A stretch of 16,113 nucleotides of DNA from an archaeon. Lineage in GTDB: Archaea; Iainarchaeota; Iainarchaeia; Iainarchaeales; CSSED10-239. Location of the stretch: the NCBI GenBank assembly GCA_035390665.1, contig DAOOUC010000011.1:1-16113 (forward strand). The letters run 5' to 3'. The notes beneath the pieces were generated by a model, which was not told the origin of the DNA, did not search any database, and was given only the letters and a program-made list of their open reading frames with translations. Of this stretch, positions 2 to 16,113 are shown in pieces. The first letter of the stretch is position 1. The number at the start of each line of letters is the position of its first letter. The position numbers were made by a program, and so were the translations under genes.

Positions 2-1780
2 ATGTTAACAACAGGTGCAGGGGTAGCAACTGCTCGTGCAATAAAAAGAGAAATGCCAGGTGCATATGACACCGTAGATGAATTTATTAATCCAGCAATA
101 ACAAACACCACGGTAATTGGGCCACCAGGAGGGCCACCACTTGCAGGTAAGGATTTAATTAATTTTAATTCTCAATTAACTAATCAACACACATATATAT
201 CAAGATATGTAGGAACAAAACCACATAGTGCTGGTCAATTTGTATTTAATCCAGCAAATACTGCAGACGATGCATTTTTAAAAACAATTTTACCAAAAAT
301 ATCAGATAGTTCTGGTAATTTAGATTTGGTTAAATTTAATGCATTAGATCCAAAAGACTTATCTGACTTTAAAGCAGTCATCGATAGAGGAAGTTATCTT
401 GGAAAAAAAGGATTAATACAGCCAGATAAAGCCAAATTTTTAAGTAGGTTAGATACACACATTGCATCTAAAACTCCAAGTTCTTCTACAGTTGTAAAAG
501 AAATGACCGAAGATGTCTTGAATCAATCATTAAAAAGTGCAAAAGCTCAAGATAAAGCATTGAAAGCAAGAGCCGAAGCTGTACAAAGCAGACTAGATAA
601 AAAAACAAAAATAAAAAAACCATCTTTAAAAGCAAAAAAAGAAATATCTAAGCTTACAGATGAATTAGATGAAGTAAAGAAACTACAGAATGCAACTACA
701 GAGCGTTTAAAAACTTTTGAATCAGTTAAAGCAAACGGATCAAAAGGGGGAATTTATACAATAGATGATGCAGCAGCAAAAACCTTAAGTCAAGCAGATA
801 ACACAATTGCAACAATTGCAAAACCAACATCGAGATTAACAAAGTTTGGAGTTGGCGCAGGGAGATTTGCATCAGATTTACTTGTTATGTATTTCTCTAA
901 TAAATTAGCAAACGAGGCAGTAGATGTTTTAACAGAAGAAGGTCAATTAAATAATATGGTTTATGTAGATGACACAGTACCAATTAAAGAATTTAAAAAA
1001 CAAACCTGGTATAGAGTACAAATCTACAAATCAGAAAATAATTCATATAGTCAAGTATATACTTTAGAAGAACCAAATATAACTACAGAAAACATTATTT
1101 ACTATAGAACAAATACCGAAGTTGTAAAATTAATAACAACAGAACACCAAGAAGAAATGTATCAAACAAATAACCCTCAAACAAGTGATCCATATACTCC
1201 ACGCACAACCGGAAGTATAGGATTAAATACAGAGGATATAGCAACGATTGCAGAACTTCAAGCAAAAATGTTTCAAGAGAAAGAAAATCAATTAAAAGGA
1301 TACAATGATTGTTCTTTTTCTACAGTTGGTTCTGTTTGTAATAATCTAGATCCTCTTAAACCAAATTATTGTTCTGCATTTGCACAAAGAGTTGCAACAG
1401 AAGTTTATGGCATAACTTATAATCGCGGAAACGCATGTGATAGTGCAACAGTAAATTTTGGAACCAGAAATAAAGTAATTTGGCAAAGTGGAAGAGATTC
1501 AGATGAAGATTTTGAAAATTATTTAATACCCGGTGCAGCTTTAACATTAAGGAACTATGGAGGATCATTAAATTGCGATCCTTCTCATGTTGTTTTGTAT
1601 GTAGGAAAACAGAATGGATCGACACAATATATAATACATCAATGGGGAAATAAATCTCATCTTGAACCATTATTCCAATCACAAGGTGGAAGATTTAATT
1701 TATCTAAAAATGTTTATCAAATTGTAATTCCTGAAAACGGTTATACACTTTATGATCAATTTGTTACAAAGACAGCATAA
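2..1780 (+). CDS. 5'-partial protein with a Lys-rich coiled-coil segment and a C-terminal NlpC/P60-type cysteine peptidase domain
   Basis: 592-aa ORF in the track. The frame is open to the window edge, so the ATG at 2 is probably internal. TAA stop at 1778-1780. Codon and A-richness pattern matches the neighbouring genes. The C-terminal Cys/His/His motif set is described in the domain feature. Confidence 0.85.
   Translation: MLTTGAGVATARAIKREMPGAYDTVDEFINPAITNTTVIGPPGGPPLAGKDLINFNSQLTNQHTYISRYVGTKPHSAGQFVFNPANTADDAFLKTILPKISDSSGNLDLVKFNALDPKDLSDFKAVIDRGSYLGKKGLIQPDKAKFLSRLDTHIASKTPSSSTVVKEMTEDVLNQSLKSAKAQDKALKARAEAVQSRLDKKTKIKKPSLKAKKEISKLTDELDEVKKLQNATTERLKTFESVKANGSKGGIYTIDDAAAKTLSQADNTIATIAKPTSRLTKFGVGAGRFASDLLVMYFSNKLANEAVDVLTEEGQLNNMVYVDDTVPIKEFKKQTWYRVQIYKSENNSYSQVYTLEEPNITTENIIYYRTNTEVVKLITTEHQEEMYQTNNPQTSDPYTPRTTGSIGLNTEDIATIAELQAKMFQEKENQLKGYNDCSFSTVGSVCNNLDPLKPNYCSAFAQRVATEVYGITYNRGNACDSATVNFGTRNKVIWQSGRDSDEDFENYLIPGAALTLRNYGGSLNCDPSHVVLYVGKQNGSTQYIIHQWGNKSHLEPLFQSQGGRFNLSKNVYQIVIPENGYTLYDQFVTKTA
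494..736 (+). other. Lys/Glu/Ala-rich predicted coiled-coil segment of gene 1 (aa ~165-245)
   Basis: Sequence VKEMTEDVLNQSLKSAKAQDKALKARAEAVQSRLDKKTKIKKPSLKAKKEISKLTDELDEVKKLQNATTERLKTFESVKA is heptad-like, highly charged, and free of Pro/Gly except for one Pro. Confidence 0.5.
1304..1756 (+). other. NlpC/P60-like (papain-fold) peptidase domain of gene 1; candidate triad Cys457 (1370-1372), His529 (1586-1588), His546 (1637-1639)
   Basis: NYCSAFAQRVATEVYGITYNRGNA resembles the NlpC/P60 catalytic-Cys helix (DCSGfv...GI.LPR). LIPGAALTL resembles pGDlvff. SHVVLYVGKQNGSTQYIIHQ resembles gHVgiYiG..g..iHa. The order Cys-His-His is as in the family (Pfam NLPC_P60, PF00877). Recognised by eye only. 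Confidence 0.65.
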
Positions 1781-1815: not shown

Positions 1816-1911
1816 ATGAAATTAAATAACAAGGGATTTACTTTATTTACTGCGTTAATTTCTTTAATATTAGTATCTATATCTTTAGCTCTTGTATTTA
1901 ACATGATTGCG
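1816..1911 (+). other. Class III (prepilin-type) signal peptide plus N-terminal hydrophobic pilin helix of gene 2
   Basis: KGFT fits both the bacterial G|FTL(I/L)E motif (except Thr instead of Glu at +5) and the archaeal [KR][GA]|[ALIFQMVED][ILMVTAS] class III pattern. Confidence 0.6.
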
Positions 1912-3525
1912 ACAGAAGAAACCTATTTAGATTTAATTCAAGATCAAGCATCTATGTCTGATTTAATAACAATGGGAGATTTAGCAAAAGCCGATGCATT
2001 TAATACTTTTTTAATTTCTTTAAGATCTAAATGGGAAGAAACTAAATCAGATCCAAACAATCCATTTAGAATACAAAGAAAGCACATAGACATGAATTGG
2101 ACAGAATTTACAGATGATTTTGTAAAAGATACTTTTTTTGAAAGAAATTTTGCAGGTTATTTTGCTCAATCTTTACTTTATAATCTAGAATATAAAGCAA
2201 ATCCCCCTGGTTATGCAATAACAATAAAAAAAGATGTTGGTTCGGTTAATGCACAAGGGGTTTACCAAGAAAATGAAAATTTTAATGAAATTATAGAACA
2301 AATATTTAGAGATGGCGGACAGAAAGTAAATATAGTAGATTGTAATCAAGATGGTGATGATTGTGTTGGTTCTTTCTATTTAACTTTAGATACAACAAAA
2401 TTATCTGACGAAAATTATGAGATGTTACCAATAATAACTGTTTTAAGATATAAAACAAACCAAGTTATTCAAAGACCAATATTAAACAGACAAGTATATA
2501 AAATATATATGCCATGGCGTGGATTTCAGGCATTTAGAGTGGTAAGAAGAATTGCATTGGGTGATGCAGAAAAAGAGGATTTTCCAGCAACATCAGAGCA
2601 GTACACTGGTTTATTTAACCCAAAACTTCACAACACTTTAGAGCAAGCAAGACTTGGTTATTGTGATCCAGGAACTTGTTCTCCTCGCCCAAACTTTTTT
2701 CAAACACCAACAAAAAAAGGATTTGATAATAAATGTAATCAAGTTCCTACAACTTCATTTTCAGGAGGTGTACCGTCAATTCTTACAGGAATATCTCTTT
2801 CTGGAAATTATGATTCAAAAGATGTAAGCAACATGAAAGAACAATTTAATACATTTTATGAAGCAGTTTTAAATCATCAATTACAATCACTTTCTGGTGC
2901 AGCATATCCAAATACCGGATTAATAATGGAAGGGAACACACACGGAGACCTTAATTTTATGGAAATAAAAGCAGAAGCGGAAGGTAAGGAAAAAACTAAA
3001 AAAATAATAGAGCAAGAAACTGTTTCAGGGATAAACATAGGTGATTATCCATCAACTACTTTTTCAGCATTACAAGATATTTCAGGAATTGCAGGTGGTA
3101 TTGGAATATATTTAAATGATAATAAATCTAGTTATATTTGGGATGAATATAATACCTGGTATTTACAACACAATAACAAAAGTGTAGGTGCAAATTCAAG
3201 TGCCGCAAGTATTAATTTTACTTGTGTTGAATTAAGAGAAACTGTATTATCTTTTAAGTTTATAGAAACGGATCCAAGATATTATGTAAGAGAAAACTAC
3301 ACAAATAATGGAATAACAACTCCTGTTTCAATAAATGTAGAATTAAGAGATACATATGCGCCTTTTTTCTTCCCTAGTTCCACAAATTTATGGAATACAC
3401 TTACAGCTGATGGAAAAGGGTATATTTCTGGCACACCTCCAGATCTTGAAGGAGATTTTGAAAATAAATGGACTTGTTATACAAAAGCCGATGGAGATGG
3501 TGCAAAGTGTGGTGTAGTGGAATAA
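1816..3525 (+). CDS. Large type IV pilin-like (prepilin-type signal) secreted protein, a possible pilus tip or minor-pilin adhesin
   Basis: 569-aa ORF from ATG 1816 to TAA 3523-3525. The N-terminus MKLNNKG|FTLFTALISLILVSISLALVFNMIA has a short basic n-region, K-G at -2/-1, F-T-L at +1..+3, then a ~25-aa hydrophobic helix, which is the prepilin peptidase substrate pattern. Paired cysteines occur throughout, including a C-terminal C-x10-C loop. Confidence 0.85.
   Translation: MKLNNKGFTLFTALISLILVSISLALVFNMIATEETYLDLIQDQASMSDLITMGDLAKADAFNTFLISLRSKWEETKSDPNNPFRIQRKHIDMNWTEFTDDFVKDTFFERNFAGYFAQSLLYNLEYKANPPGYAITIKKDVGSVNAQGVYQENENFNEIIEQIFRDGGQKVNIVDCNQDGDDCVGSFYLTLDTTKLSDENYEMLPIITVLRYKTNQVIQRPILNRQVYKIYMPWRGFQAFRVVRRIALGDAEKEDFPATSEQYTGLFNPKLHNTLEQARLGYCDPGTCSPRPNFFQTPTKKGFDNKCNQVPTTSFSGGVPSILTGISLSGNYDSKDVSNMKEQFNTFYEAVLNHQLQSLSGAAYPNTGLIMEGNTHGDLNFMEIKAEAEGKEKTKKIIEQETVSGINIGDYPSTTFSALQDISGIAGGIGIYLNDNKSSYIWDEYNTWYLQHNNKSVGANSSAASINFTCVELRETVLSFKFIETDPRYYVRENYTNNGITTPVSINVELRDTYAPFFFPSSTNLWNTLTADGKGYISGTPPDLEGDFENKWTCYTKADGDGAKCGVVE
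3475..3510 (+). other. C-terminal Cys-x10-Cys loop of gene 2 (CYTKADGDGAKC), similar to the pilin D-region disulfide loop
   Basis: Cys554 (3475-3477) and Cys565 (3508-3510) lie 4 residues from the C-terminus. Bacterial type IVa pilins carry a disulfide-bonded loop in this position. Confidence 0.4.
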
Positions 3526-3658: not shown

Positions 3659-6600
3659 ATGGGTTTAAAAGAATTCTACTACAGCCTAGAAGATAAATAT
3701 TTTGAAATGCTTGATAATTTGGAGGAAAAAGGAATAAATCTTTATAAAATAATTGATCCTCTTGAGAAAAACGGAATATCTACTTTCCCTATTTTTTCGT
3801 TAATTGTTCTTGCATTAATTGCATTAATAATATTCTTATTAGTATCTAATTTTACATCAATTGGCTCAAATGAAGTAAGAATTGCTTTTTTTGATGAGAC
3901 TCAAAACCCAATACAAGACACAGATATTAAAATAAAATTAAATGGTGTTTCTGATACAGTAACTACCGACAATTCAGGTGTTGTCTATCTAAGTGATTTA
4001 GATAAAACTAAATTATATGAATTAGAATTAGATGATGCTTCTTATAAATTAATTGATAGAGATTATTATGATTTAAATCCAACAACAAAATATCATTTAA
4101 TTAATATTGAAAAAATAGAATATCAAAGTACAAAAACAATTTCTTTCAAAAAACAATCTGGGGAGTTATTATTAGAAGAATTAGATGTAATTTTTGAATG
4201 TACAAATGGGAATTATACAAGTGAAAATACAATAACAGAGGGATTAATTACCTTAAGTGATATACCAAAAGATTGTGGAAGATTAACAGTAACTATCTTA
4301 GGAAGAAACGACTATACTCCTAATATCCCAGAAGAAGGAACAGTAGGAGAAGTAAGATTTAGTGAAAGTATAAGTTATGGTACTCTTTCTATAACAGTAA
4401 AAGATAAAGATTCTTTGTTTAATTTAGCAAATGTAAATGTTTCTATTTATGATAAGGCAACAGATATGTTGATTGATAGTGATACAACAAATCAAAATGG
4501 AATAATGATTTCAGAAAGCGTAATAGTAAACAAGCAATATTATGTTTTAGTTTCTGATCCAAATTCAATATATTCTACAATTACAAAATCAGATTATCAA
4601 AATAATTTAATTTCTTTTATTCAGATAAAACAAGGAATGAATACTTTAGATTTAAAATTAAAAAAAGATATTATTGGTTTTATTGAAGTAAGAGTAAAAG
4701 ATAAAGTAACAGGTGCTCTTTTAGAAGGAGTTAATGTAAAATTATCAAGACTTGGAAACATAATGGATACTAGAGCAACAGAAGTTAATGGACAAGTAAA
4801 ATTCCCTATTAAAGAAAATGTTTCTTATATTTTAACTTTAGATAAGCCAGGCTATTTATTACAATCTCAAACTGCAAGTATTTCTTCAAATATTATAGAT
4901 ATTAGTTTAAGATCAATGACTGAAACAGGAAATTATCCTGCACATATAAATGTTGTTGATGGTGAAAGAAAAGGAATAGAATATGCCACAGTAAAAATAT
5001 GGGATGTTCTAAATAACGAAGTTGTAAAAGTTGTTACAACAGATATTTCAGGTAAAGTAGTAGTAAATAATTTAAATCCAGAAGGCACATATTTTGTAGA
5101 AGCAATTTCAGGTAAATTTACAGGAAAATCAAATAATTTCACAGTTAAAGAAAGAGAAATTGAAGAAGTTTATGCAATTGTAGAAATAGGTCAAGGGACA
5201 TATAATTTAGTAATAATGGATGATAGTCAAAATCCAATTTCTGCACCAATAAAAGTTTATGATGTAAAAAATAATAAAGAAATGGAAGAGAAAAGAACAA
5301 CATCAAATGAGAGCGGTCTTGCAATCATAAGCATTAGAGCAGATAAAACTGTATTTTTTAGTATTGAAACAGATCAAGGAAATGTAATAACAAAACAATA
5401 TAATGTTCCTGCAGAGAATACCTTTAATGAAACAATAATTATCCCTGCAAAAATTTCAAGTTCTTCAAACATAGAATTTATTGGTTTTTATAATAGTTCA
5501 GGAGAGATTGTGTCAAGTATTATTCCAGGACAAACTCAAACAGCTAGATTTTTATTAAATGTAGATAAAAAATATTCTAAAGTTGTTGCTCATTTAAGAA
5601 CAGGAGAAGGAGACACTTGTGGTACTAGAACCTATTCTGCAAATGAAGATTTTATTTATATTAAACAAGTAAGTTTTGCTGGAAGCAAAATGATTGGCTC
5701 TTTAGATTATACACCTTGCTTTGGAGAAACAAAAGATTTAGCATCAATTGTTACAAAAAACACAAAGTGGGTAAATTTAGTATTAGATAACCCAGTTGTT
5801 GGTTCTTATTTAATAGATGCAGAAATTGTAGTGTTAGATAGTGCTACAACAAATCAATCAATCTATTATAGAGCAGAATATCAACAAGGAACAACAGTAT
5901 TAAGAAACCCATTAGATGCAACAATCGGAACAAGTACAAGTTCTTCAACAAAGCAAGCACTATATGCTTATGCTAAAAATTTGCCAATCTTTGTAGGAGA
6001 TACAAGTAACTGTGATGGTAGTATTTGTTATTCTTTTGCATTTAGAGAAAAAAACACATCTCAAGATAAAAGAGTAATAGATAAATTTTCAGCAAAAGAT
6101 GGGACAGATTATAAATTTAAATTTAGATTTGGAGTTTTAAGACCAGTAAGTGATGCAACAATTAAAATTTCAACAACAGGTCAAACAATTAAATTAAATA
6201 GCTATACTATTAGTCCAGCAGGAAGCTTACCAATAGTAGATACAGAGTTTTCAGATATTGACATAGGAAGTATTTCAGCTAACGACATAGTAACAGGCGA
6301 AGTTGATTTATCTGTAATAAACGATATTAGTGATGAATTAGTAATTGAGATTAGCTCAAATGGAGACGCAGTCTTTGAAAAGAAAATATTATTTGATTTA
6401 AAACCTTCAAAGAATTTTACTGTAGAATTCTTACCAAAGATGGTTGTGCCATATATTCCAAACAATGCAATAATTGGGGTAATGGATGATACAAATAAAT
6501 CAGTAATGGATGCAAGTGTATTTGTTAAGATTAACTCAAAACCAATCATTGATGGAAAAACAAACAGAGAAGGTCTATTTACATTTATATTACCTGCAAC

Positions 6601-9600
6601 AAATATAAATGATGTTATAGAAATAAATGTAAGAAAACAAGGATATAGAACAAATACAATTAAGTATGTTGTTACTGAGAATATTATAACTACAATTCCA
6701 GAATCTATAGAACTAAATATAGATATTTCTCAAAATTATTCTACATCTACAAATATAATTTTAATTAATAATACAGTTTTACCATTATCAATAACATCAA
6801 TAAAAACAAATGTTAATTCAGAATATGTAAAATTAACAAGTGCATCTCAAGGTATGATATTTGAACCAAATTCACAGGTTGCATTAGATTTAACTGCAAG
6901 ATTAACCGAAGCAGGAATAGATTTAATGACACAAAAAACAATTAAAGGAACATTGTTGATTACTGTAAATGAATCAAATTTTGAAAAGAACTGGCAAATA
7001 TCTATTCCAATAACAATAAGAATTACTTTTGGTCAAGCAATTGATAATACCAATTGTTTAATTATTGATCCAGAAGAAACAGAAATAAGAATGACAGATA
7101 CAGAATATGCTTATAATTTAAATATTACAAATGATTGTCAAGTAGGAGAGGTTCCAGTTTCTTTAAATAAAATATTTATAGAATCAAATTATAAAGACAC
7201 CAAAAAACTTGGAGACTTTTATGTAGTTATTGGTGCTCAAGAGAAGAAATTAGCATTAGAAGAAAAAATACAAGTATTAAATAGTTTAGATGCTGGAAAG
7301 AAAGCAACTATAAAACTAATATATAAGATGAATAATAATACAAAAGGTGGAATATCTACCCCAGTAATAAGATTGACATCTAATAGAGCAAACATAAATG
7401 GAGTAGATACAATTGTTTCAGAACATTTGCCAAAGATAATTATAAACAATTATATCAATTGTATTGAAACACCAACAACTCAAATTATTGTGCCATATTG
7501 TGCACCAGTTTCATTATACAATAATATGTTTGGAATGGGCCCATATACAAATTTCTCACAAAATTTTGATCCAACAATGTACAATCAACAATCAACAACT
7601 ATTCCTGGTCAATCATATTGGCAATCAACAGCATATGCCCCAAGCTATGCGATGAGTGATTTCTATAATAATCAAAACTTCCCATATAACAATTTTACAG
7701 AAGGAATGCAAGGGTATCCAATGTCTGGAATGACAAACGGGCAAACAGGTTGTCAAGCAGCACAAATACAAGTTAAAAATAGTTGTTATGATGAAGTAGA
7801 ATTAAAGTTTGATTCATTAGCTGGTGTAATTATTAGTTCAGGTCAAGAGATGGCATTAAAGAAAGGAGAAAGTAAGACATTAACTGTTCAAGGTGGACAA
7901 GTATTAGGTGAATATAAAATTGCAATGTCTGCAAAACCAACAGATGATGCAATAGAAGAATATACTTTCGTAAAAGATTTGCCTGTAATAGTAAATAGAC
8001 CATTAGAGATATTACCTGAAAATTGTATAATTGTACCTAAAACAAAGTTTGATTTTACATACACTACAGATATACAAAAATTAATGGTAATAAATAGTTG
8101 TTATGATGCAGGGTTTGCATTAACATCATTAAGAATATTAAATCCAGATGTATTAATGATTGGAGATGTTCAATACTTCTCAATAGGAGATGTAAATGCA
8201 ACATTAAGACCAAAGAAAACCTACAGATATGAAGAAGGAAAAAGAATTGAAATAATGACTGTTGGAGTAAGAAGAAATCCAGAGATTGGAAGAAAGATGT
8301 TAAATAATGATAATGACACAACAGCAAAAACAATATCAAATCTAAGAAAAAATTACTTTGATATTGGCAATTCAATTAATTTAACAGCAATACTTGGAAT
8401 AAGTTATTCTACTCCAAGATTACAAGGTGGAGAGAAAGAAGAAGAATTAACATTTACAGATAATTTACAATGGTTAGGTTATGTTGATGAAAACAAAACA
8501 GAAGAAACAAATACAAATACAGACACAGGCACCGGAACAACAGGGACAGGAACAACACCAGGAACTACAAATGCAGATGTAAGTACAAGAATAAACATTG
8601 ACTTTACAACAGGGAATTCAAATCAAATACCTGCAGGTCCAGCAATAGAGTTTACTGAATTTGCATTAAATGATAATTCTGGTGCAATTGGAATATTAGT
8701 AAAAATTAAAGATTCATATTTAGATGATAAAAGTGATTTCTTTAATAATGAAACAGACGCAAGAGTTTGTTTTAATGGAGTAATTTCAGACTTTAAGAAA
8801 GCAAGTCCAAGTATTTTTGAGAAATTAACTGAAAAGTCATATATAGATAAAAACGAAAAAGGAAGAATACAAAACGGAGAAGTAATTTCAGAAATACATT
8901 TCTTTGAAAAAGGAACAATCTTTAAAGTTTGTTTAAGTAGACCATTAACTCCATTAAATACAGCAGATGGTAAATTTGATAGAGCAGTATATAGAGAAGA
9001 AACAGATGTTTCAAAAGAAAAAATATTTACAATAATGAATCCAAAATGGTGGATATTTAAAGATTCATCAGTATATAAAGTAAAGTTTGCATTAAGTGCA
9101 AATCTTGGAACCTTTGGTTACATTGAGAAAACAAATGTTCCAGAATATTTAAAAGACAGTCCAAGATTACAAGATGGAGAATGTCTTGATCCTAAAGGAT
9201 TTGAGAAATTAGGTTTTACAGGATCTAATTATGACAACTATGGATTCAATAGATTATTGTTTACATGGAATCCAGCAGAAATTAAACACAACACTTGTGA
9301 TTATGGATACATTTATTGTGATCAAGATCAATTAAGAATTGCATTTTCACAAAAAATGGATTATTTAGCAAATAATAAATTTATAGAATTAGATGGAATA
9401 AAATTCTTAAAGTCTGATTCTGTTGCAAAGATTGCAAAGAATGAATTATTATTAGATAAGAATCCATTAAATAAAGAATTAATTGAAAATGCAGTAAGTA
9501 GTAATGCAATTGATTCAGCAGAAGAAACAAAATTAAAAATAACAAAATTAAGAGCAATAATAAACACAGTTCCGGAGGCATTAAGAAAATACACAATTAT

Positions 9601-11350
9601 AGAAATTGCAATACCTGTTGGGGCTATAGAAGGATTAGAGCCAATTGATTTAAATGCAGAAAAAGTAGAAGCATTTACAACAAAGATGGCAGGATCTACA
9701 AAGATTACTTTCGAGAATACAAATACAATTAAAAGATATCAATTTAATGTAAATACCTTCTTAAATACAACAAGTAATTTATCAACAGAAATTGATGGAT
9801 TATCTGATGCAGAAAATAAACTATTAAGTGAATATTTAAGAAGATTTATTAATTCAATGAACGTTTATTATGGAGACACATTAACTCCAGTAATAATTAA
9901 TGCAAAAACATATGGCAGTTTAGAAAGCGGAGCAACAAAAGATATATTGTCTAAACCACAATTTTTAAACAATGCTTGGGAATTAAATTTAAAATCAAGT
10001 TCAGAAATAAAACAAATTAGTTCTCCAGCAACATATAAGATAACTTTAGATATAAATAATTCTTCAAGTAAGAAAGCAAATTATGATGTTACAGCAATAA
10101 ATGCGGGAGTAGATGCATACAGTACAAATAACAATTATAAGCAAAATATCTTCTTTACAAACCCAGTAAATGCATACTACTATAACTATGGCGGAATACC
10201 ATTCAAAACAGAAGAAAGAGGAGAAAGAAAACAAACAGAATTAATAAATAGTTTTAACAATTGGGCAAAAGTACAAGACGGAATTGTATTAAAAGCAAAT
10301 ACAGCAAATAATGCAATTTCAAATGTTTTATTTAAAGACATAAGACCAATACAAATTGTTTCTACAGTTGCAAATGATTATCGTGTAGAATACTTAGCTC
10401 AAGAGAAATATAATAATTTAGTTGAAAACATGGAATGGAGATTAAGTGCCGAAGAACAAAAATTAATAAAACAAACAATACAAAGAACAGGTTCTTCAAC
10501 AAATGGATATCAATTATTAAATTATAATAGTAGACCAACAACATTTAGAAATACAATATTTGTATTTAATAATTCAGCAGATAAATCAAAATTAGAACAT
10601 CAATTAAGAATATATTCAAGAAATGAATTATTATTCAATGTAACTCCAATATCATTACAAATGACAAATGTTTCAGACAATAAAGCATATGGTTATGCTA
10701 TACCAAAGAACCTAACAACAGTTACAGGTTATGTTGGTAAATTAGATGCTGACACAGCAACAGTAAATGGAATGATTAAGAGTATACAAAAAGAAAAGAT
10801 GTGTTTTAATTTTAATAATGGCACATTTAATTTGTGGATTAATCCCGCAGATAAATCAATTGTAGAAGTTGTAGAAGTAGAGACCCAACCAACAACATCT
10901 CAACAAACAGCACAAGTACCTCAACAAACAACACAAACAGAATCAACTACAACTCAGACTATTGCAAATTTAACAATTACTGGTGGAAGTTTTAGTGTGG
11001 ATACTTCAGTAACAAGTCAAACAACAGTAAATGTTATTGGAGATAATTTAACAATGGATTTAGCTAATAAAAAATTAAATGGGGTTGTAAAATTTGAAAG
11101 TGGTAACCAAAATGCAACAGTAAATATTACAAGTGGTACAGCCGTAATTTCAGGCAATAATGTAACCTTAACAATAAATGGGACTGCAAGCGCAGGCCTA
11201 ATGGGCACAATAAGAGTTACAACACAAGGTACTCTTAATACAACAGGAAATCAAAATTTAGATGGAACATATACAATTGTTGCAAATCAATCAGTAAATG
11301 TAAATGGTCCACAATTAGCATTAGTAAATATTAATTTTAATAAGCAATAA
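3659..11350 (+). CDS. Giant (2563 aa) N-terminally membrane-anchored surface or adhesin-like protein
   Basis: Uninterrupted ORF in the track, ending in TAA at 11348-11350. The start is supported by the conserved MGLK..YY N-terminus shared with gene 4. It has a single TM helix, tandem beta-sandwich repeats, many Cys pairs and N-x-S/T sequons, and Thr-rich linkers. Confidence 0.95.
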   Translation: MGLKEFYYSLEDKYFEMLDNLEEKGINLYKIIDPLEKNGISTFPIFSLIVLALIALIIFLLVSNFTSIGSNEVRIAFFDETQNPIQDTDIKIKLNGVSDTVTTDNSGVVYLSDLDKTKLYELELDDASYKLIDRDYYDLNPTTKYHLINIEKIEYQSTKTISFKKQSGELLLEELDVIFECTNGNYTSENTITEGLITLSDIPKDCGRLTVTILGRNDYTPNIPEEGTVGEVRFSESISYGTLSITVKDKDSLFNLANVNVSIYDKATDMLIDSDTTNQNGIMISESVIVNKQYYVLVSDPNSIYSTITKSDYQNNLISFIQIKQGMNTLDLKLKKDIIGFIEVRVKDKVTGALLEGVNVKLSRLGNIMDTRATEVNGQVKFPIKENVSYILTLDKPGYLLQSQTASISSNIIDISLRSMTETGNYPAHINVVDGERKGIEYATVKIWDVLNNEVVKVVTTDISGKVVVNNLNPEGTYFVEAISGKFTGKSNNFTVKEREIEEVYAIVEIGQGTYNLVIMDDSQNPISAPIKVYDVKNNKEMEEKRTTSNESGLAIISIRADKTVFFSIETDQGNVITKQYNVPAENTFNETIIIPAKISSSSNIEFIGFYNSSGEIVSSIIPGQTQTARFLLNVDKKYSKVVAHLRTGEGDTCGTRTYSANEDFIYIKQVSFAGSKMIGSLDYTPCFGETKDLASIVTKNTKWVNLVLDNPVVGSYLIDAEIVVLDSATTNQSIYYRAEYQQGTTVLRNPLDATIGTSTSSSTKQALYAYAKNLPIFVGDTSNCDGSICYSFAFREKNTSQDKRVIDKFSAKDGTDYKFKFRFGVLRPVSDATIKISTTGQTIKLNSYTISPAGSLPIVDTEFSDIDIGSISANDIVTGEVDLSVINDISDELVIEISSNGDAVFEKKILFDLKPSKNFTVEFLPKMVVPYIPNNAIIGVMDDTNKSVMDASVFVKINSKPIIDGKTNREGLFTFILPATNINDVIEINVRKQGYRTNTIKYVVTENIITTIPESIELNIDISQNYSTSTNIILINNTVLPLSITSIKTNVNSEYVKLTSASQGMIFEPNSQVALDLTARLTEAGIDLMTQKTIKGTLLITVNESNFEKNWQISIPITIRITFGQAIDNTNCLIIDPEETEIRMTDTEYAYNLNITNDCQVGEVPVSLNKIFIESNYKDTKKLGDFYVVIGAQEKKLALEEKIQVLNSLDAGKKATIKLIYKMNNNTKGGISTPVIRLTSNRANINGVDTIVSEHLPKIIINNYINCIETPTTQIIVPYCAPVSLYNNMFGMGPYTNFSQNFDPTMYNQQSTTIPGQSYWQSTAYAPSYAMSDFYNNQNFPYNNFTEGMQGYPMSGMTNGQTGCQAAQIQVKNSCYDEVELKFDSLAGVIISSGQEMALKKGESKTLTVQGGQVLGEYKIAMSAKPTDDAIEEYTFVKDLPVIVNRPLEILPENCIIVPKTKFDFTYTTDIQKLMVINSCYDAGFALTSLRILNPDVLMIGDVQYFSIGDVNATLRPKKTYRYEEGKRIEIMTVGVRRNPEIGRKMLNNDNDTTAKTISNLRKNYFDIGNSINLTAILGISYSTPRLQGGEKEEELTFTDNLQWLGYVDENKTEETNTNTDTGTGTTGTGTTPGTTNADVSTRINIDFTTGNSNQIPAGPAIEFTEFALNDNSGAIGILVKIKDSYLDDKSDFFNNETDARVCFNGVISDFKKASPSIFEKLTEKSYIDKNEKGRIQNGEVISEIHFFEKGTIFKVCLSRPLTPLNTADGKFDRAVYREETDVSKEKIFTIMNPKWWIFKDSSVYKVKFALSANLGTFGYIEKTNVPEYLKDSPRLQDGECLDPKGFEKLGFTGSNYDNYGFNRLLFTWNPAEIKHNTCDYGYIYCDQDQLRIAFSQKMDYLANNKFIELDGIKFLKSDSVAKIAKNELLLDKNPLNKELIENAVSSNAIDSAEETKLKITKLRAIINTVPEALRKYTIIEIAIPVGAIEGLEPIDLNAEKVEAFTTKMAGSTKITFENTNTIKRYQFNVNTFLNTTSNLSTEIDGLSDAENKLLSEYLRRFINSMNVYYGDTLTPVIINAKTYGSLESGATKDILSKPQFLNNAWELNLKSSSEIKQISSPATYKITLDINNSSSKKANYDVTAINAGVDAYSTNNNYKQNIFFTNPVNAYYYNYGGIPFKTEERGERKQTELINSFNNWAKVQDGIVLKANTANNAISNVLFKDIRPIQIVSTVANDYRVEYLAQEKYNNLVENMEWRLSAEEQKLIKQTIQRTGSSTNGYQLLNYNSRPTTFRNTIFVFNNSADKSKLEHQLRIYSRNELLFNVTPISLQMTNVSDNKAYGYAIPKNLTTVTGYVGKLDADTATVNGMIKSIQKEKMCFNFNNGTFNLWINPADKSIVEVVEVETQPTTSQQTAQVPQQTTQTESTTTQTIANLTITGGSFSVDTSVTSQTTVNVIGDNLTMDLANKKLNGVVKFESGNQNATVNITSGTAVISGNNVTLTINGTASAGLMGTIRVTTQGTLNTTGNQNLDGTYTIVANQSVNVNGPQLALVNINFNKQ
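3782..3847 (+). other. Signal-anchor transmembrane helix of gene 3 (aa ~42-63, TFPIFSLIVLALIALIIFLLVS)
   Basis: It is the only long uncharged hydrophobic stretch in the protein. It is preceded by a charged ~40-aa segment. Confidence 0.8.
3872..5383 (+). repeat. Six tandem carboxypeptidase-regulatory-like / PEGA-like beta-sandwich repeats (protein-level repeats, aa ~72-575)
   Basis: A recurring pattern of ~60-65 aa, for example IEVRVKDKVTGALLEGVNVKLSRLGNIMDTRATEVNGQVKFPIKENVSYILTLDKPGYL and AHINVVDGERKGIEYATVKIWDVLNNEVVKVVTTDISGKVVVNNLNPEGTYFVEAISGKF. This is the v.V.D..g.pi.gA.V.l........TD..G...f..l..g.Y.v.v...GY signature of CarboxypepD_reg (PF13620). A seventh copy sits at aa ~920-1000. 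Confidence 0.7.
6686..8458 (+). other. Series of Ig-like modules with an ASH/PapD-like 'h-x-h-x-N-x-C' strand motif and an upstream partner Cys (aa ~1010-1600)
   Basis: NIILINNTVLPLSITSI; NCLIIDPEETEIRMTDTEYAYNLNITNDCQVGEVPVSLN; CQAAQIQVKNSCYDEVELKF; NCIIVPKTKFDFTYTTDIQKLMVINSCYDAGFALTS. Confidence 0.45.
7511..7756 (+). other. Lys/Arg-free Q/N/Y/M/G/P-rich low-complexity insert (aa ~1285-1366), bracketed by Cys1281 and Cys1365
   Basis: LYNNMFGMGPYTNFSQNFDPTMYNQQSTTIPGQSYWQSTAYAPSYAMSDFYNNQNFPYNNFTEGMQGYPMSGMTNGQTG has no K or R in ~79 residues of an otherwise Lys-rich protein. Confidence 0.8.
8501..8578 (+). other. Thr/Gly/Asn-rich linker (TEETNTNTDTGTGTTGTGTTPGTTNAD)
   Basis: Low-complexity ACA/GGA codon run that separates the Ig-like stalk from the unassigned distal region. 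Confidence 0.8.
10883..10963 (+). other. Thr/Gln-rich linker (QPTTSQQTAQVPQQTTQTESTTTQTIA)
   Basis: Low-complexity stretch immediately before the C-terminal Asn/Thr-rich domain. Confidence 0.8.
10964..11347 (+). other. C-terminal Asn/Thr/Gly/Val-rich beta-solenoid-like domain, dense in N-x-S/T sequons, with no C-terminal anchor
   Basis: NLTITGGSFSVDTSVTSQTTVNVIGDNLTMDL...NATVNITSGTAVISGNNVTLTINGTASAGLMGTIRVTTQGTLNTTGNQNLDGTYTIVANQSVNVNGPQLALVNINF shows short periodic (T/S)VN(V/I)xG strands. Confidence 0.45.
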
Positions 11351-11384
11351 AAGAGTAAAAAAATAAAACAATATAATAATTAAA

Positions 11385-11389
11385 AGGTG
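11385..11389 (+). promoter_or_regulatory. Shine-Dalgarno AGGTG for gene 4, 5 nt upstream of ATG 11395
   Basis: ttaaaAGGTGtaaaaATG. The 44-bp spacer after gene 3 has no T-run or hairpin, which suggests co-transcription of genes 3 and 4. Confidence 0.6.
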
Positions 11390-11394
11390 TAAAA

Positions 11395-14300
11395 ATGGGA
11401 CTAAAAAATATATATTATTTCTTTGAAAATAAATGGTATGATTTTGTAGAAAAAACAGGGTTGTACAAAGTAACAGATAAGATAGACAAAGTAATGCCTT
11501 CTTTTTTGCTATTTATTTTAATTATTATAATGCTTATTGCAGGGATATTTTTGATGATACCTTCAATTCAGGGAAAAGGAGAAGCAACAATAAGTTTCTC
11601 TGTTCTTGATGATGAAGGAAATTCTGTGCCTCTTGCACCAATAATGGTATCTACAGAAACAGATAATTTTAGACTTACAACAGATGATTACGGTACAACT
11701 GAACCAATTTCTTTAAAGAAAGATTCAGAGATATATGTTTCTATTGATTATTCTGGTTCTAATTATGAAAAGTATTCAAATAATTTTGTAATTTCAGACA
11801 ATCAAGAAATTGTAATCTATTTAGATAATGCAGAATCTGAAACTCAAAAAGTAAATTATAATTTTTCTTTAGTTGATTCTTTAACAAGTGCAAATATTCC
11901 AAATGATGGTTCTATTGTTTTTAGTTGTAGAAATTTAGGGCCAATTGCTCCAGGAACAGTAACAGTTATTGGAGGAGTTGTAGAAGTACAAGCAGATAGT
12001 GCCTGTCAGTTAGTTGCTCAATCAATTTCAATACAAGGTTATGAAACAAAATATGGAGTAAGTATTTCTCCACAAACAAGTATGATTGATTTAACAAAAT
12101 TAAGTATTGGTTTTGAAGAACAACAAACATATTCTCTATATATTTCAGTAAATAATGAAGCAGGAAATCCATTGTCTTCAATGCAAGCAAAACTATATCA
12201 AAATAATGTTGAGATAATTGGCGGAAATTGTTTAACTGCAAATGGAGTTTGTACAATTACAGGATTAGAGTCTGGAAGTTATACTCTTAAAGTTACAGAC
12301 ACTAGAACAAATGCAGAATATGGTCAAGCACAATCTTCTGTATATATTTCAAGTAATACAAATCAACCAATCACAATGACTAGAAATATTGCAGGATATA
12401 TACTAGTAAAAGTTAAAAAAAGTAATAATCAAGCAATTTCTGGTGCAACCGTAACTTTAAAATACATAGATAATGATAATGTAGATATTGCAAGCTATAC
12501 AACAGATTCAGATGGCCAAGCATATTTGGCAGTTTATGATCTTACAAAAAGATATAGGGTTGTTGTAGATAAAGAAGATTATTTGATTGCTTCCCAAAGT
12601 AATATTGTTGCAGTAGCAAACTATCCAACTAATCCAACAGTTACAATAACTTTACAACAAATTACTCCAACAACAGCAGCTCAATTAAAGTTAAGAGTAA
12701 TTAATAGTGAAACAGGAAAAGGTTTTCCAAATGCACAAGTTGTGTTATATAGTTCTGATACAGGATTTTTAACAGACTATAAACCAAAAATGACAAATAG
12801 TGATGGTAATGTTACTTTTGTTGTAAGTTCTGGAAACTATTATGCTAAAGCATTTAAGGGTTCATCAATAGGATTAAGTGAAGAATTTGAATTTAATGTT
12901 AGAGATGCAACAACAGCTGAAGCAAAAATAATACCAATGGAAATAACAAAAGGAAATTTATTAGTAACAGTTGTGGATAAGGACGGAGAGGCAGTTCCAC
13001 ATGCAAACATATTATTATTTGATAGATATAATTCTAGAACACCAATTTGGGGTGGAGATTTAGCAAACATAGATGGAACTTATGAAATAACTGAAATTGT
13101 TTCTGATCAAGACGTTTATGTTGTTGTTTCTGATATTATTTCAAATCTTGGTTCAACACAGTCTGAATTTGTGTATATTAAACCAAATGAAACAAACGAA
13201 TTAAAAGTAACTTTATATAATAAAATTAATGCTTCTCAAAAACCAAAGATTGAATTTTTAGGTTTCTTTAATGATTCAGGAAGTAGATTAAATGGATACA
13301 TAAGAAGTGGAGCAGAATACAAAGCAAAATTTTTATTATTAATTCCTTCAGAAAGGTGGGATTCTGATTTAGAAGAATTTGAAGAAGTTGGAGCAATATT
13401 AAGAACAGGTTCTTCAAACACCCCATATATGGAAAACGATAGTATTTATATTAAAGATATAGTTTTACCAAACTCAGAAATACAAAAATTTACACAATAT
13501 AGTTCAGAAGATGGTTATGATGGAAAAGACGATGTAGACACAAGAACAGAAGGAGATGCAAAATGGGCAAAGGTTATCTTTAATCCAATCAATAACAGAG
13601 ACTATGCAACAGCATATACAATAATGGCAGATTTAAAAGTTAAAGATGATGCAGCATATGGAGAAAAAGTAGATATTCATTATTTAGGTTTTGGATATAA
13701 TGAAGATGAAGAATATGAAAGTGATCCAGTAGATAATACAAATAATGATGATGTAGAATACATGACCTACAAAACAGAAAGTTTCAATATTGGAGAAGAA
13801 CAAGCGTGTTCTGATGATTTCTGTTTTACATTAAATATCACAAACTTAGATGAAGACTTAAGAGAAGACGTAGTAGATAACTATAATGCAAAACCACAAC
13901 AGAATTATAAATTAAGATTTGGTTTAATTAATAACAATAAAGACAGAATATATACAAATAATTCAAGATTTGAAATAAAGAATGCAGATAAAGGACTTAT
14001 CTTTAAAGATATAAACTTTACACAACCAAATTCATCACACACAAATATTAATGTAATCCCAGATACTTACGAATATAAAATAACAACACAACAATTTAAT
14101 CCACACAGTACAATAAGTGGAGAAATACAATTTGTTCCAAGTCTAAAAGGAGACAGACAAATATTATTACAATATGTTTCTGATCAAAGAATTGTATTTA
14201 CAAGATTAATTAACATACATGTTTTATCAGATAAAACATTTAAAGTAGAAATAACCCCTGAAGTTATTCCATCAGGTAAAAACTTTAATTTAGAATTAGA

Positions 14301-16113
14301 AATTAAAGATGAACAAACAGGAATTGAAGTTGATAAACAAGTTACTGTTAGTGTAAAAGATAGATTCAAAAAAGATTTAATTTCTAATGTTTTAGTTGGC
14401 GCTTTAGGTAAAGTTTCAATTACAAACATACCTGGTCAAGAAACAGGAAATAAAGTTTATGTTTATGTTCAAGCTCCAGAGTATGAGACACATATTTCTG
14501 AAATTGAAGTTACAGAGAATATATTTAAAGTAACTCCAACTAAAATTGGTGTTTCATTAAACATCAATACAAAAACAGAAGAGACTGCAAAATTCACTAT
14601 TGAAAATTTAAGTGAAAATTCTTTAGTAATTGAGTCAATTAGATTTGTTGGAGATGAAACAAAATTAGAATCACTAGATATTGCAAGAATAAATACAGCA
14701 TTATCTGGATATTATGATATTGAAATTCCAGGAATTGTAAAAGATGAAACAACTTATAATAATAAGAAAGAAATTGATGCAAAATTCTTTACAAGCCCAA
14801 GAGCTCAAACACTTAAAGAAGTAAAGAATTTGTCTTCTAATCTTGTTATTAAATTAAGAGACAAATATAATAAGCAATATTCTTGGGAAATGGAACTTCC
14901 AGTAACAATAACTGTTGGTTTTGAAGGATTAATGGATAATTCCAATTGTATTACTCTTTCAGAAGGAATGTGGGAAACAACAGTTGTTGATAAATATGTA
15001 GATACACAATTTACTTTGAAAAACAACTGTGGGGTAAATAGTAGACCTGTTCCATTAAACGGAGGCTTGTCTGCAAAGGTAGAATTTGAAGGCAATCCAT
15101 TAGGTGTATTTACTGTAGATGTTGGTACAAGAAAAGTAGAATTATCACACGGATATTTTAAATCAATTTATGATACTGTAGATTCAGAAAAAGTATATAG
15201 TGTTAATTTAAGATACACTCCTGTTGGAAGATATACAGGAGATATAAAAGGAAAAATAATATTTAGATCTCTAAATACAACAAACCAAGGAAGTCAAGAA
15301 CTATTAACCGAATATAAGTTTACACTACACGTAGTAAGCTTAAGTGACTGTTATGTTCTTTCAAAGAAAGTATTAACAGCAAAAGAAACTGGAGAAGCAG
15401 ATTCATTTACTATAGAAAATAAAAATTGTGGATCTCAAACAGTCTATAGACTTTCATGTGATGAATGTAATGGTCTTGTATTAAATCCAAAAGAAAACAT
15501 AACTGTTCCAGCAACAGGAAGTAGTGAAGAAATAAAAGTAATGTCAATGGGTGCAATGCCAGGAGTATATTTATTAAATGTTTACTCTAAAGTTGGTGGA
15601 GCAAGAGGACACGAGAGAAATGTTGGAAAAGTTAGAGTAGAAGTAAGACCTAACACTCAATGTCTTGACCTTGACAGATACGAATATGATCTTTATAGAT
15701 ATCAATACTCAGAAAACACAGGACAAGAAGTAAAAGCAAAAAGCTTTGATACAGGAAATATAATCAACCGTTGTTATGGTCAAACAGTAAAAGTACAAGG
15801 AGAAGTCAAAGACTCTGCAAAATGGCAAGTTGCCCTATTTAACGGAGTAAGAGACGGATTATTTACTGGTGCAACATCTGGTTTAATAAACGCAATGATT
15901 CCAGACAAAAATGCAGAATGTAATACTGGAATTTTAGGAATAGGGAAGAAAGCATGTCCTGAAGGTTTTGATTGTAAATCAGGAAAATGTGTTGCAAAAG
16001 AAGTAACTCCTCCTGTAAATAATGAACAAAATCAAAAAAACTTAGAAAAAGTATGTAATCCTGCTTGTGCTGATACTCATGAATGTGTAAATGGTGCATG
16101 TCAATTAAAAGTT
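11395..16113 (+). CDS. Second giant N-terminally anchored surface protein, a paralogue of gene 3 (3'-partial, at least 1573 aa)
   Basis: Not in the supplied track. I translated frame 1 codon by codon from ATG 11395 to 16113 and found 1573 sense codons with no stop. The start is MGLKNIYYFFENKWYDFVEKTGLYKVTDKIDKVMPSFLLFILIIIMLIAGIFLMIPS. The SD is at 11385-11389. Every track ORF in this interval is a short minus-strand shadow. It shares many collinear motifs with gene 3. Confidence 0.9.
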   Translation, partial: MGLKNIYYFFENKWYDFVEKTGLYKVTDKIDKVMPSFLLFILIIIMLIAGIFLMIPSIQGKGEATISFSVLDDEGNSVPLAPIMVSTETDNFRLTTDDYGTTEPISLKKDSEIYVSIDYSGSNYEKYSNNFVISDNQEIVIYLDNAESETQKVNYNFSLVDSLTSANIPNDGSIVFSCRNLGPIAPGTVTVIGGVVEVQADSACQLVAQSISIQGYETKYGVSISPQTSMIDLTKLSIGFEEQQTYSLYISVNNEAGNPLSSMQAKLYQNNVEIIGGNCLTANGVCTITGLESGSYTLKVTDTRTNAEYGQAQSSVYISSNTNQPITMTRNIAGYILVKVKKSNNQAISGATVTLKYIDNDNVDIASYTTDSDGQAYLAVYDLTKRYRVVVDKEDYLIASQSNIVAVANYPTNPTVTITLQQITPTTAAQLKLRVINSETGKGFPNAQVVLYSSDTGFLTDYKPKMTNSDGNVTFVVSSGNYYAKAFKGSSIGLSEEFEFNVRDATTAEAKIIPMEITKGNLLVTVVDKDGEAVPHANILLFDRYNSRTPIWGGDLANIDGTYEITEIVSDQDVYVVVSDIISNLGSTQSEFVYIKPNETNELKVTLYNKINASQKPKIEFLGFFNDSGSRLNGYIRSGAEYKAKFLLLIPSERWDSDLEEFEEVGAILRTGSSNTPYMENDSIYIKDIVLPNSEIQKFTQYSSEDGYDGKDDVDTRTEGDAKWAKVIFNPINNRDYATAYTIMADLKVKDDAAYGEKVDIHYLGFGYNEDEEYESDPVDNTNNDDVEYMTYKTESFNIGEEQACSDDFCFTLNITNLDEDLREDVVDNYNAKPQQNYKLRFGLINNNKDRIYTNNSRFEIKNADKGLIFKDINFTQPNSSHTNINVIPDTYEYKITTQQFNPHSTISGEIQFVPSLKGDRQILLQYVSDQRIVFTRLINIHVLSDKTFKVEITPEVIPSGKNFNLELEIKDEQTGIEVDKQVTVSVKDRFKKDLISNVLVGALGKVSITNIPGQETGNKVYVYVQAPEYETHISEIEVTENIFKVTPTKIGVSLNINTKTEETAKFTIENLSENSLVIESIRFVGDETKLESLDIARINTALSGYYDIEIPGIVKDETTYNNKKEIDAKFFTSPRAQTLKEVKNLSSNLVIKLRDKYNKQYSWEMELPVTITVGFEGLMDNSNCITLSEGMWETTVVDKYVDTQFTLKNNCGVNSRPVPLNGGLSAKVEFEGNPLGVFTVDVGTRKVELSHGYFKSIYDTVDSEKVYSVNLRYTPVGRYTGDIKGKIIFRSLNTTNQGSQELLTEYKFTLHVVSLSDCYVLSKKVLTAKETGEADSFTIENKNCGSQTVYRLSCDECNGLVLNPKENITVPATGSSEEIKVMSMGAMPGVYLLNVYSKVGGARGHERNVGKVRVEVRPNTQCLDLDRYEYDLYRYQYSENTGQEVKAKSFDTGNIINRCYGQTVKVQGEVKDSAKWQVALFNGVRDGLFTGATSGLINAMIPDKNAECNTGILGIGKKACPEGFDCKSGKCVAKEVTPPVNNEQNQKNLEKVCNPACADTHECVNGACQLKV
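11500..11565 (+). other. Signal-anchor transmembrane helix of gene 4 (SFLLFILIIIMLIAGIFLMIPS)
   Basis: Hydrophobic stretch at the same relative position as in gene 3. Confidence 0.8.
11581..13218 (+). repeat. Six tandem carboxypeptidase-regulatory-like beta-sandwich repeats of gene 4
   Basis: For example GYILVKVKKSNNQAISGATVTLKYIDNDNVDIASYTTDSDGQAYLAVYDLTKRYRVVVDKEDYL and GNLLVTVVDKDGEAVPHANILLFDRYNSRTPIWGGDLANIDGTYEITEIVSDQDVYVVVSD. The second repeat carries a Cys pair, as does the second repeat of gene 3. Confidence 0.7.
14521..15660 (+). other. ASH/PapD-like Ig modules of gene 4 with the same N-x-C strand motif
   Basis: TAKFTIENLSENSLVIESIRF; NCITLSEGMWETTVVDKYVDTQFTLKNNCGVNSRPVPLN; DCYVLSKKVLTAKETGEADSFTIENKNCGSQTVYRLS. 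Confidence 0.45.
15919..16113 (+). other. Cys-rich mini-modules (two copies of A-C-x5-C-x2-G-x-C) separated by a Pro/Asn/Gln linker, at the window edge
   Basis: ACPEGFDCKSGKC (15952-15990) and ACADTHECVNGAC (16063-16101), each preceded by one further Cys (15919, 16054). Confidence 0.55.

Follow-up and report, generated by a model that had tools for sequence, protein, structure and literature searches.

The 16,113 base window analyzed here, which is the first part of the 20,452 base contig C11, was found to be filled by four open reading frames (ORFs) on the forward strand, two of which, genes 3 and 4, encode giant proteins, the B and C members of an ancient family of predicted surface proteins that grew by tandem duplication. 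The contig comes from an 848 kb assembly (28% G+C, 21 contigs, 86% complete) in which an archaeal small-subunit rRNA is present, and the source names given for close relatives of gene 3 are "Candidatus Diapherotrites archaeon" and "Candidatus ainarchaeum sp.", which identifies the organism as an Iainarchaeota-type member of the DPANN archaea. Gene 1 (positions 2–1780) is the 3' part of the gene for giant A, with which the array begins, and is followed by a gene for a pilin-like protein, P, of 569 residues with a class III (prepilin-type) signal, KG/FTLFTAL (1816–3525), by gene 3, a B-lineage giant of 2563 residues (3659–11350), and by gene 4, a C-lineage giant which is open at the window end and has its first 1573 residues within the window (11395–16113). 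Genes 3 and 4 are separated by a 44 nucleotide (nt) spacer (11351–11394) in which AAAAGGTG, a short distance before the ATG, looks like a ribosome-binding site, consistent with co-transcription.

The two giant products follow a common plan. In gene 3 a conserved, predicted cytoplasmic leader and a single signal-anchor helix (3659–3871) precede six β-sandwich domains of the prealbumin or CarboxypepD_reg-like type (3872–5458), a family-specific middle module (residues 600–1300, 5456–7558), Cys-stapled immunoglobulin (Ig)-like modules (residues 1366–1489, 7754–8125), a distal head (residues 1641–2400, 8579–10858) and a Thr/Gln-rich linker with a variable tail (10859–11347), present in the closest orthologues only. 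In gene 4 the conserved leader and signal anchor (11395–11580), six β-sandwich domains (11584–13215), a middle module collinear with gene 3 residues 600–1256 (13237–15315) and Cys-stapled Ig-like modules (residues 1334–1468, 15394–15798) are followed by a short Gly-rich piece (LFNGVRDGLFTGATSGLINAMIP) which opens the tail, and then by the start of a fast-evolving tail (15832–16113).

The leader is about 40 residues long (consensus MGLKxxYYxLEDKYFxxLDxLEEKGIxLYxxxDPLEKxGIPTFP) and its profile matched five proteins only in this genome, all of them giants, each with a single strong hydrophobic helix after the leader. The initial annotation had placed six carboxypeptidase-regulatory-like repeats in each protein, with a Cys pair specifically in repeat 2 of both. 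Six sandwich domains were indeed found in each, although a repeat profile built from the family recognized only five of these CarboxypepD_reg-like sandwiches within the N-terminal 600 residues of either protein, repeat 2 with its Cys pair being too divergent for a score; a seventh copy was scored at an equivalent place in the middle module of both. The pair in repeat 2 is real (gene 3 C181/C206, gene 4 C178/C204) and most members of the family alignment keep it, three rows lacking one or both cysteines, but it is not confined to that repeat, gene 4 having a further pair, C279/C286, in repeat 3. The gathering threshold of PF13620 (32.3 bits) was exceeded by gene 4 (63.2 bits) and by the gene 3 segment 330–620 (47.2 bits); a Pfam scan with full-length gene 3 gave no hit at E below 0.1, so that the CarboxypepD_reg hits of this protein come from segments only. 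The Pfam models matched by the stalk domains (CarboxypepD_reg, SpaA, SdrD_B, Big_1) are of the general kind known from the stalks of bacterial fibrillar adhesins.

About five further all-β sandwich domains were predicted for the middle module of gene 3 using AlphaFold2 (AF2), with a mean predicted local distance difference test (pLDDT) score of 86. Foldseek matches to this module were strings of Ig-like domains, among them PrgB, alpha-2-macroglobulin and complement C3-type entries, and large ciliary central-apparatus chains. As the template modeling (TM) scores were only about 0.2, these matches are generic and no specific function follows from them. C785/C790 (gene 3 numbering) was invariant across the family and C1133/C1160 nearly so, and further pairs were likewise invariant or close to it; conserved Cys pairs of this kind would fit an extracellular, oxidised protein.

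Collinearity of the two proteins had been proposed in the initial annotation from eight motif pairs, all of which were found where it had placed them, the offset between partners rising smoothly from 0 to +53 residues. A single BLASTP alignment of about 1000 columns joined gene 3 residues 332–1256 to gene 4 residues 326–1307 (23% identity, E 1e-31), and in the whole-genome search residues 1–1255 were aligned. A dot plot (25-residue windows, BLOSUM62) contained one diagonal, which continued well beyond the N-terminus, from residue 1 to about 1150; 68 of the 103 high-scoring windows fell in a diagonal band making up 3.1% of the matrix, and shuffled gene 4 controls gave 14–29 such windows over the entire matrix. 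A similarity of this extent far exceeds both chance and what low-complexity β-strand sequence would give. Past the listed anchors, comparison of profiles with hhalign matched gene 3 residues 1366–1489 to gene 4 residues 1334–1468 (probability 96.7%, E 4.6e-10); in this profile alignment no counterpart was found for a Q/N/Y-rich insert of gene 3 which lies before residue 1366. Judged by sequence, the homology between the gene 3 and gene 4 products is collinear and extends from residue 1 as far as about residue 1470–1490. Their nucleotide sequences have diverged even at the conserved N-terminus, as had been noted, the leaders being only 44% identical.

Because both proteins are built of common β-sandwich domains that occur in many unrelated surface proteins, we considered whether each had been assembled independently, by shuffling, from a common pool of Ig-like and CarboxypepD_reg-like domains. 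The single collinear alignment, however, runs through non-repetitive, family-specific sequence, and the features held in common outside the repeats include the leader, C785/C790, C1133/C1160 and the motifs of the middle module, a module for which only 322 matches were found among 1.84 billion representative proteins. Nor did the dot plot show the many off-diagonal matches, equal in strength to the diagonal, that convergence would require. Convergence of this kind is already contradicted by these results and we consider it extremely improbable.

Gene 4 continues beyond the window, through a 100-N assembly gap, to contig position 16860, and is followed by gene 5 (C11 16894–19818), which encodes a protein of 975 residues with its own signal peptide. 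Gene 5 matched the C-terminal third of unsplit C and D proteins, namely residues 1608–2426 of the C protein of genome G036 (2444 residues), residues 2532–3186 of 3214 in G035, and residues 1718–2495 of giant D of its own genome. The split form, in which a gene 4-type protein of 1700–1870 residues is accompanied by a gene 5-type protein of 964–977 residues, was found in G002, G012, G015 and the genome studied here, which together span two genera of the family; since all other lineages have the unsplit form, it is most parsimonious to place a single fission event in this family's ancestor. These comparisons show that the C gene has been split in this family, gene 4 corresponding to a putative anchored stalk and gene 5 to its detached C-terminal module. 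The two genes are 33 nt apart (C11 16861–16893), and in this genome one reading frame runs through both, interrupted by two stop codons. The corresponding genes of G002 and G012 are in different frames, so that the shared frame in this genome appears coincidental.

Unsplit members contain an internal Gly-rich hydrophobic segment at the split point, and a similar Gly-rich stretch was found in gene 5 at residues 30–85, just after the signal peptide. The D protein of this genome (contig C3 107903–115435, minus strand) has a long stretch of the same character (…AIIGGALAAGTS…AAIGPWGWAAIGVIAIGGW…), of about 80 residues and ending near residue 1570, which lies mid-protein in an otherwise extracellular giant and at the position of the split in the C lineage. 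This stretch may act as a re-entrant segment in the membrane or as a glycine zipper.

After the split, the tails of gene 4-type proteins are highly variable, with 24-residue Cys-rich tandem repeats in this genome, Pro/Ala/Thr/Glu repeats in G002 and unrelated sequence in G012. The Gly-rich piece which opens the gene 4 tail has similar sequence in the G002 and G009 orthologues. The tail repeat of gene 4 has a unit of 72 nt (24 residues, CTPAC(A/S)DTHECVNGACQLKVAANV) and occupies window positions 15919–16113 and C11 16214–16536 (L041 1–323); 4.5 copies with 96% identity follow the 100-N gap, which falls inside the array, so that the copy number is not fixed by the assembly. The Pfam model BmKX (short scorpion toxin) matched this repeat (E 3.3e-9), most likely due to the Cys pattern alone.

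The distal head of gene 3, which comprises 760 residues (1641–2400), was predicted to form a compact α/β body (pLDDT 80.5, predicted TM score 0.68). No significant Foldseek match to the head was obtained in the PDB or in BFVD, a set of predicted viral structures (best E 0.08 in each), and Pfam gave no hits in gene 3 residues 1300–2400 or in gene 5. A direct BLASTP comparison of gene 3 with gene 5 was not significant (best E 0.021). When profile was compared with profile, gene 3 residues 1834–2400 aligned collinearly with gene 5 residues 279–948 (probability 85%, E 6.5e-6), and reversed-sequence controls gave E 0.5. The landmarks common to the gene 3 head and gene 5 (C...G.TG, CD...YCD..Q and a terminal C.N...WNP) were also present in the family-wide consensus. 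The gene 5 module is accordingly a remote homologue of the gene 3 head, so that gene 3, over its whole length, is the counterpart of genes 4 and 5 taken together. Where the head begins, some 170 residues (window 8636–9142, gene 3 residues ~1660–1828) were missing from two congeners, G002 and G003, and present in G009; this block is thus a lineage-variable domain.

We then compared the locus with relatives drawn from its own genus and family and from further families of the order. A same-strand array with the order giant A, pilin-like gene, B (gene 3 type), C (gene 4 type) and D was conserved. Giant A of the relatives has 2.7–3.4 thousand residues, and the pilin-like protein has 485–605 residues with a KGFTLFTAL-type class III signal and is always located between A and B; orthologues of it were found at the same position in G002, G003, G009, G012, G015, G030, G035 and G036. 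Three or four N-module genes, 7–10 kb apart on one strand, were found in G022, G030, G033, G035, G036, G038 and G040, and the adjacency of B and C was kept in at least nine genomes of the family. The other N-module members of the genome studied here are D (2511 residues, contig C3), A (an ORF of 2076 residues on contig C13, which runs off the contig and is open at its 3' end) and more distant ones. Residues 143–587 of gene 1 matched residues 2659–3109 of the giant A of G003 (3116 residues), which is encoded directly upstream of the pilin-like gene, and this match to its C-terminus identifies gene 1 as the C-terminal piece of giant A. The 5' part of this gene is on C13 and the 3' part on C11, with about 430 residues missing between the contigs. 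Paralogy of genes 3 and 4 stands as it had first been described, but the two are part of an array of at least four members and not a twin.

Synteny with G002 suggested that C13, C11 and the reversed C3 are parts of a single cluster of about 60 kb, all on one strand, in the proposed order A, pilin-like gene, B, C, gene 5, secreted giants, D and two more giants. For gene 6, at the end of the contig, no relatives were found in the fetched loci. The C-terminal domain of giant A (window 1340–1777) contains an invariant Cys (YCSxF) and an invariant His (PSHVVLYVGK) in four congeners, and more distant A orthologues are without the domain. The Cys...His pattern resembles that of the papain-like NlpC/P60 or CHAP amidases. 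PF00877 is a precomputed label on a family protein of 3086 residues (P0176); an NlpC/P60 identity of the gene 1 C-terminus was not confirmed, as no Pfam, PDB sequence or PDB profile hit was obtained.

The age of the duplication follows from the orthologues of each copy. Gene 3 scored 292–445 bits against the B genes of G036, G035 and G030, which belong to three other families of the order, and gene 4 scored 350–464 bits against the C genes of the same genomes; genes 3 and 4 scored only 121 bits against each other. A maximum likelihood tree of 32 N-modules (1326 columns) placed gene 3 inside B and gene 4 inside C+D, the SH-aLRT (Shimodaira-Hasegawa-like approximate likelihood ratio test) support being 100 for A, 97 for B and 98 for C+D. 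With midpoint rooting, applied for drawing only, the branching follows the gene order A, B, C, D, which would be expected from serial tandem duplication. Since genes 3 and 4 are each matched by orthologues at the corresponding position in other families, the duplication is older than the divergence of the sampled families of the order. The features of a tandem whole-gene duplication were all found, namely collinearity over the whole length, adjacency on the same strand, and separate orthologues for each copy. The proposal that a whole, already multi-domain gene had been copied long ago was likewise upheld, by the profile homology to about residue 1480, the match between head and gene 5, the positional orthologues and the tree.

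Adjacent copies that are only 23% identical and have fast-evolving distal regions might also have arisen by a recent duplication, within the genus, followed by very fast divergence under positive selection. Against this, either copy is far closer to its positional orthologues in other families than to its neighbor, the tree separates B from C+D, and B and C have stayed adjacent in at least nine genomes of the family. A recent origin is already contradicted by these data and we give it next to no credence. The closest orthologues are 65–74% identical in protein, so that synonymous sites are saturated; the closest orthologue of gene 3, L007 (G004:C18:163–7377, 68% identity), is reported with one in-frame TAA.

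The family was present in 37 of 41 relatives. When genomes were sampled across the phylum, the middle module (gene 3 residues 600–1300) was found in 127 of 151, and in 52 of the 55 of high quality, usually in three to five copies per genome. Matches were nearly all within one order, with one weak match in other orders of the class. In nearly all full-length matches listed the module starts near residue 600 of a protein of about 2300–2700 residues. A third word-indexed protein search with the family alignment added few members. The source names of family proteins are all "hypothetical protein", and no description of the giant family was found in literature searches.

Alignments of orthologues contained very few gaps in the first 1500–1600 residues even at 20–30% identity, and the distal parts differed in both sequence and length. 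The initial annotation had offered diversifying selection as one explanation for the pattern of divergence. The comparison did not demonstrate it: the N-module common to the paralogues has hardly any indels when orthologues are aligned and is moderately conserved, and strong variation is limited to the distal parts. Its suggestion of divided specificities would fit the differing heads.

Taken together, we consider it probable that genes 3 and 4 are old B and C paralogues in a conserved array, with a split C gene, whose products serve as parallel contact or adhesion fibres with divided specificities. The cytoplasmic leader and the one signal-anchor helix would hold the N-terminus in the cell's own membrane, and a stalk of a dozen or more non-identical β-sandwich domains, fixed in number and strengthened by conserved disulfides, would project a globular head far from the cell. 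The paralogues would then share a stalk plan and differ in heads and tails, and most likely they act in parallel, with specificities divided between partner cells or particles. Such a role fits the symbiotic life assumed for DPANN archaea.

Several points weigh against this interpretation. No known adhesive domain was found in either head by Pfam or Foldseek. A fixed number of diverged stalk domains suits a structural or assembled role no less than it suits simple adhesion, classical adhesins having variable numbers of near-identical repeats. The link between the gene 3 head and gene 5, at a probability of 85%, was obtained from alignments of little depth (9 and 11 sequences). The tree came from a quick search in which SH-aLRT was the sole measure of support, several of its rows are of deviant composition, and it did not separate the branching of C from that of D.

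The structural role could be that of subunits of one envelope assembly of fixed length, either a surface-layer (S-layer)-like canopy or a heteromeric sheath or stalk, with the N-modules of A–D in register. The number of domains and the length of the N-module are almost invariant among the paralogues and across the order, as seen in the constant start of the middle module and the almost gapless alignments of orthologues; moreover, all copies lie together on one strand in nearly every genome, and the leader is common to all copies and occurs in no other protein of the genome. On the other hand, no lattice-forming or known S-layer domain was among the Pfam hits, and the distal parts vary strongly among close relatives, which is typical of exposed binding tips and not of lattice contacts. 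We regard an envelope assembly as the main alternative, though an unlikely one, and prefer the parallel contact fibres. A more speculative proposal, which we rate as more doubtful still, is that A–D and the pilin-like protein form one order-specific hetero-oligomeric organelle, where the leader would recruit all of them to a common site of export or assembly and the Gly-rich segment of C and D would insert into the membrane of a partner cell. If this were true, the array would be a cell-to-cell bridging apparatus and not a set of adhesins.

DPANN archaea, with their very small genomes, are thought to rely on contact with other cells; we know of no contact machinery in the Iainarchaeota. The five leader-bearing giants and gene 5 together occupy about 38 kb, or 4.5% of the 848 kb assembly by our own arithmetic, and this investment, together with the fact that nearly all genomes sampled from the order retain the array, suggests a core, lineage-defining function. 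The domain map, the conserved disulfides, the unclassified head and the natural fission between stalk and head now provide handles for experiments.

Three known systems were compared with the array. Bacterial fibrillar adhesins (Monzon, Lafita and Bateman 2021, PMC8286594) are likewise very long proteins with a β-sandwich stalk, a distal non-stalk module and an anchor at the opposite end. They are attached by a sortase or outer-membrane anchor, whereas the giants described here are archaeal and would be anchored by an N-terminal signal-anchor helix after a cytoplasmic leader; in addition, the stalk domains of the giants are diverged and fixed in number, and their head is without a match to a solved structure or a predicted viral one. 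Among the features of fibrillar adhesins, the tandem β-sandwich stalk was found, but a recognized adhesive domain distal to the anchor was not; a binding domain of an unrecognized type may be present.

The Giant1–5 cluster of Apilactobacillus kunkeei (PMC12863079) resembles the array in its consecutive same-strand genes, partly related by duplication, for extracellular proteins of thousands of residues, and in the share of a small genome given over to them, which is several per cent in both cases (6% of 1.5 Mb in A. kunkeei). No sequence relationship between the two sets of giants was found. The A. kunkeei proteins have an N-terminal β-solenoid and are known from two genera and a few species (PMC12863079), while the archaeal array is kept across a whole order and its copies have long diverged. 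In ecological role the array resembles the Nanohaloarchaeota SPEARE proteins (Hamm et al. 2019, PMC6642349), which are also giant, mostly extracytoplasmic, membrane-anchored DPANN proteins, present in several copies that make up a few per cent of the genome, with a proposed role in host contact. Serine-protease, laminin-G and type III restriction-enzyme domains occur in SPEARE proteins, and in most of them the anchor is close to the C-terminus (PMC6642349); no serine-protease, laminin-G/adhesion or restriction-enzyme domains of this type were found in Pfam scans of the giants, which show no homology to SPEARE proteins and have their anchor at the N-terminus. The array represents an undescribed, order-wide family that is a variant of the giant surface-fibre theme, with a function that we infer to be in contact with other cells or particles.

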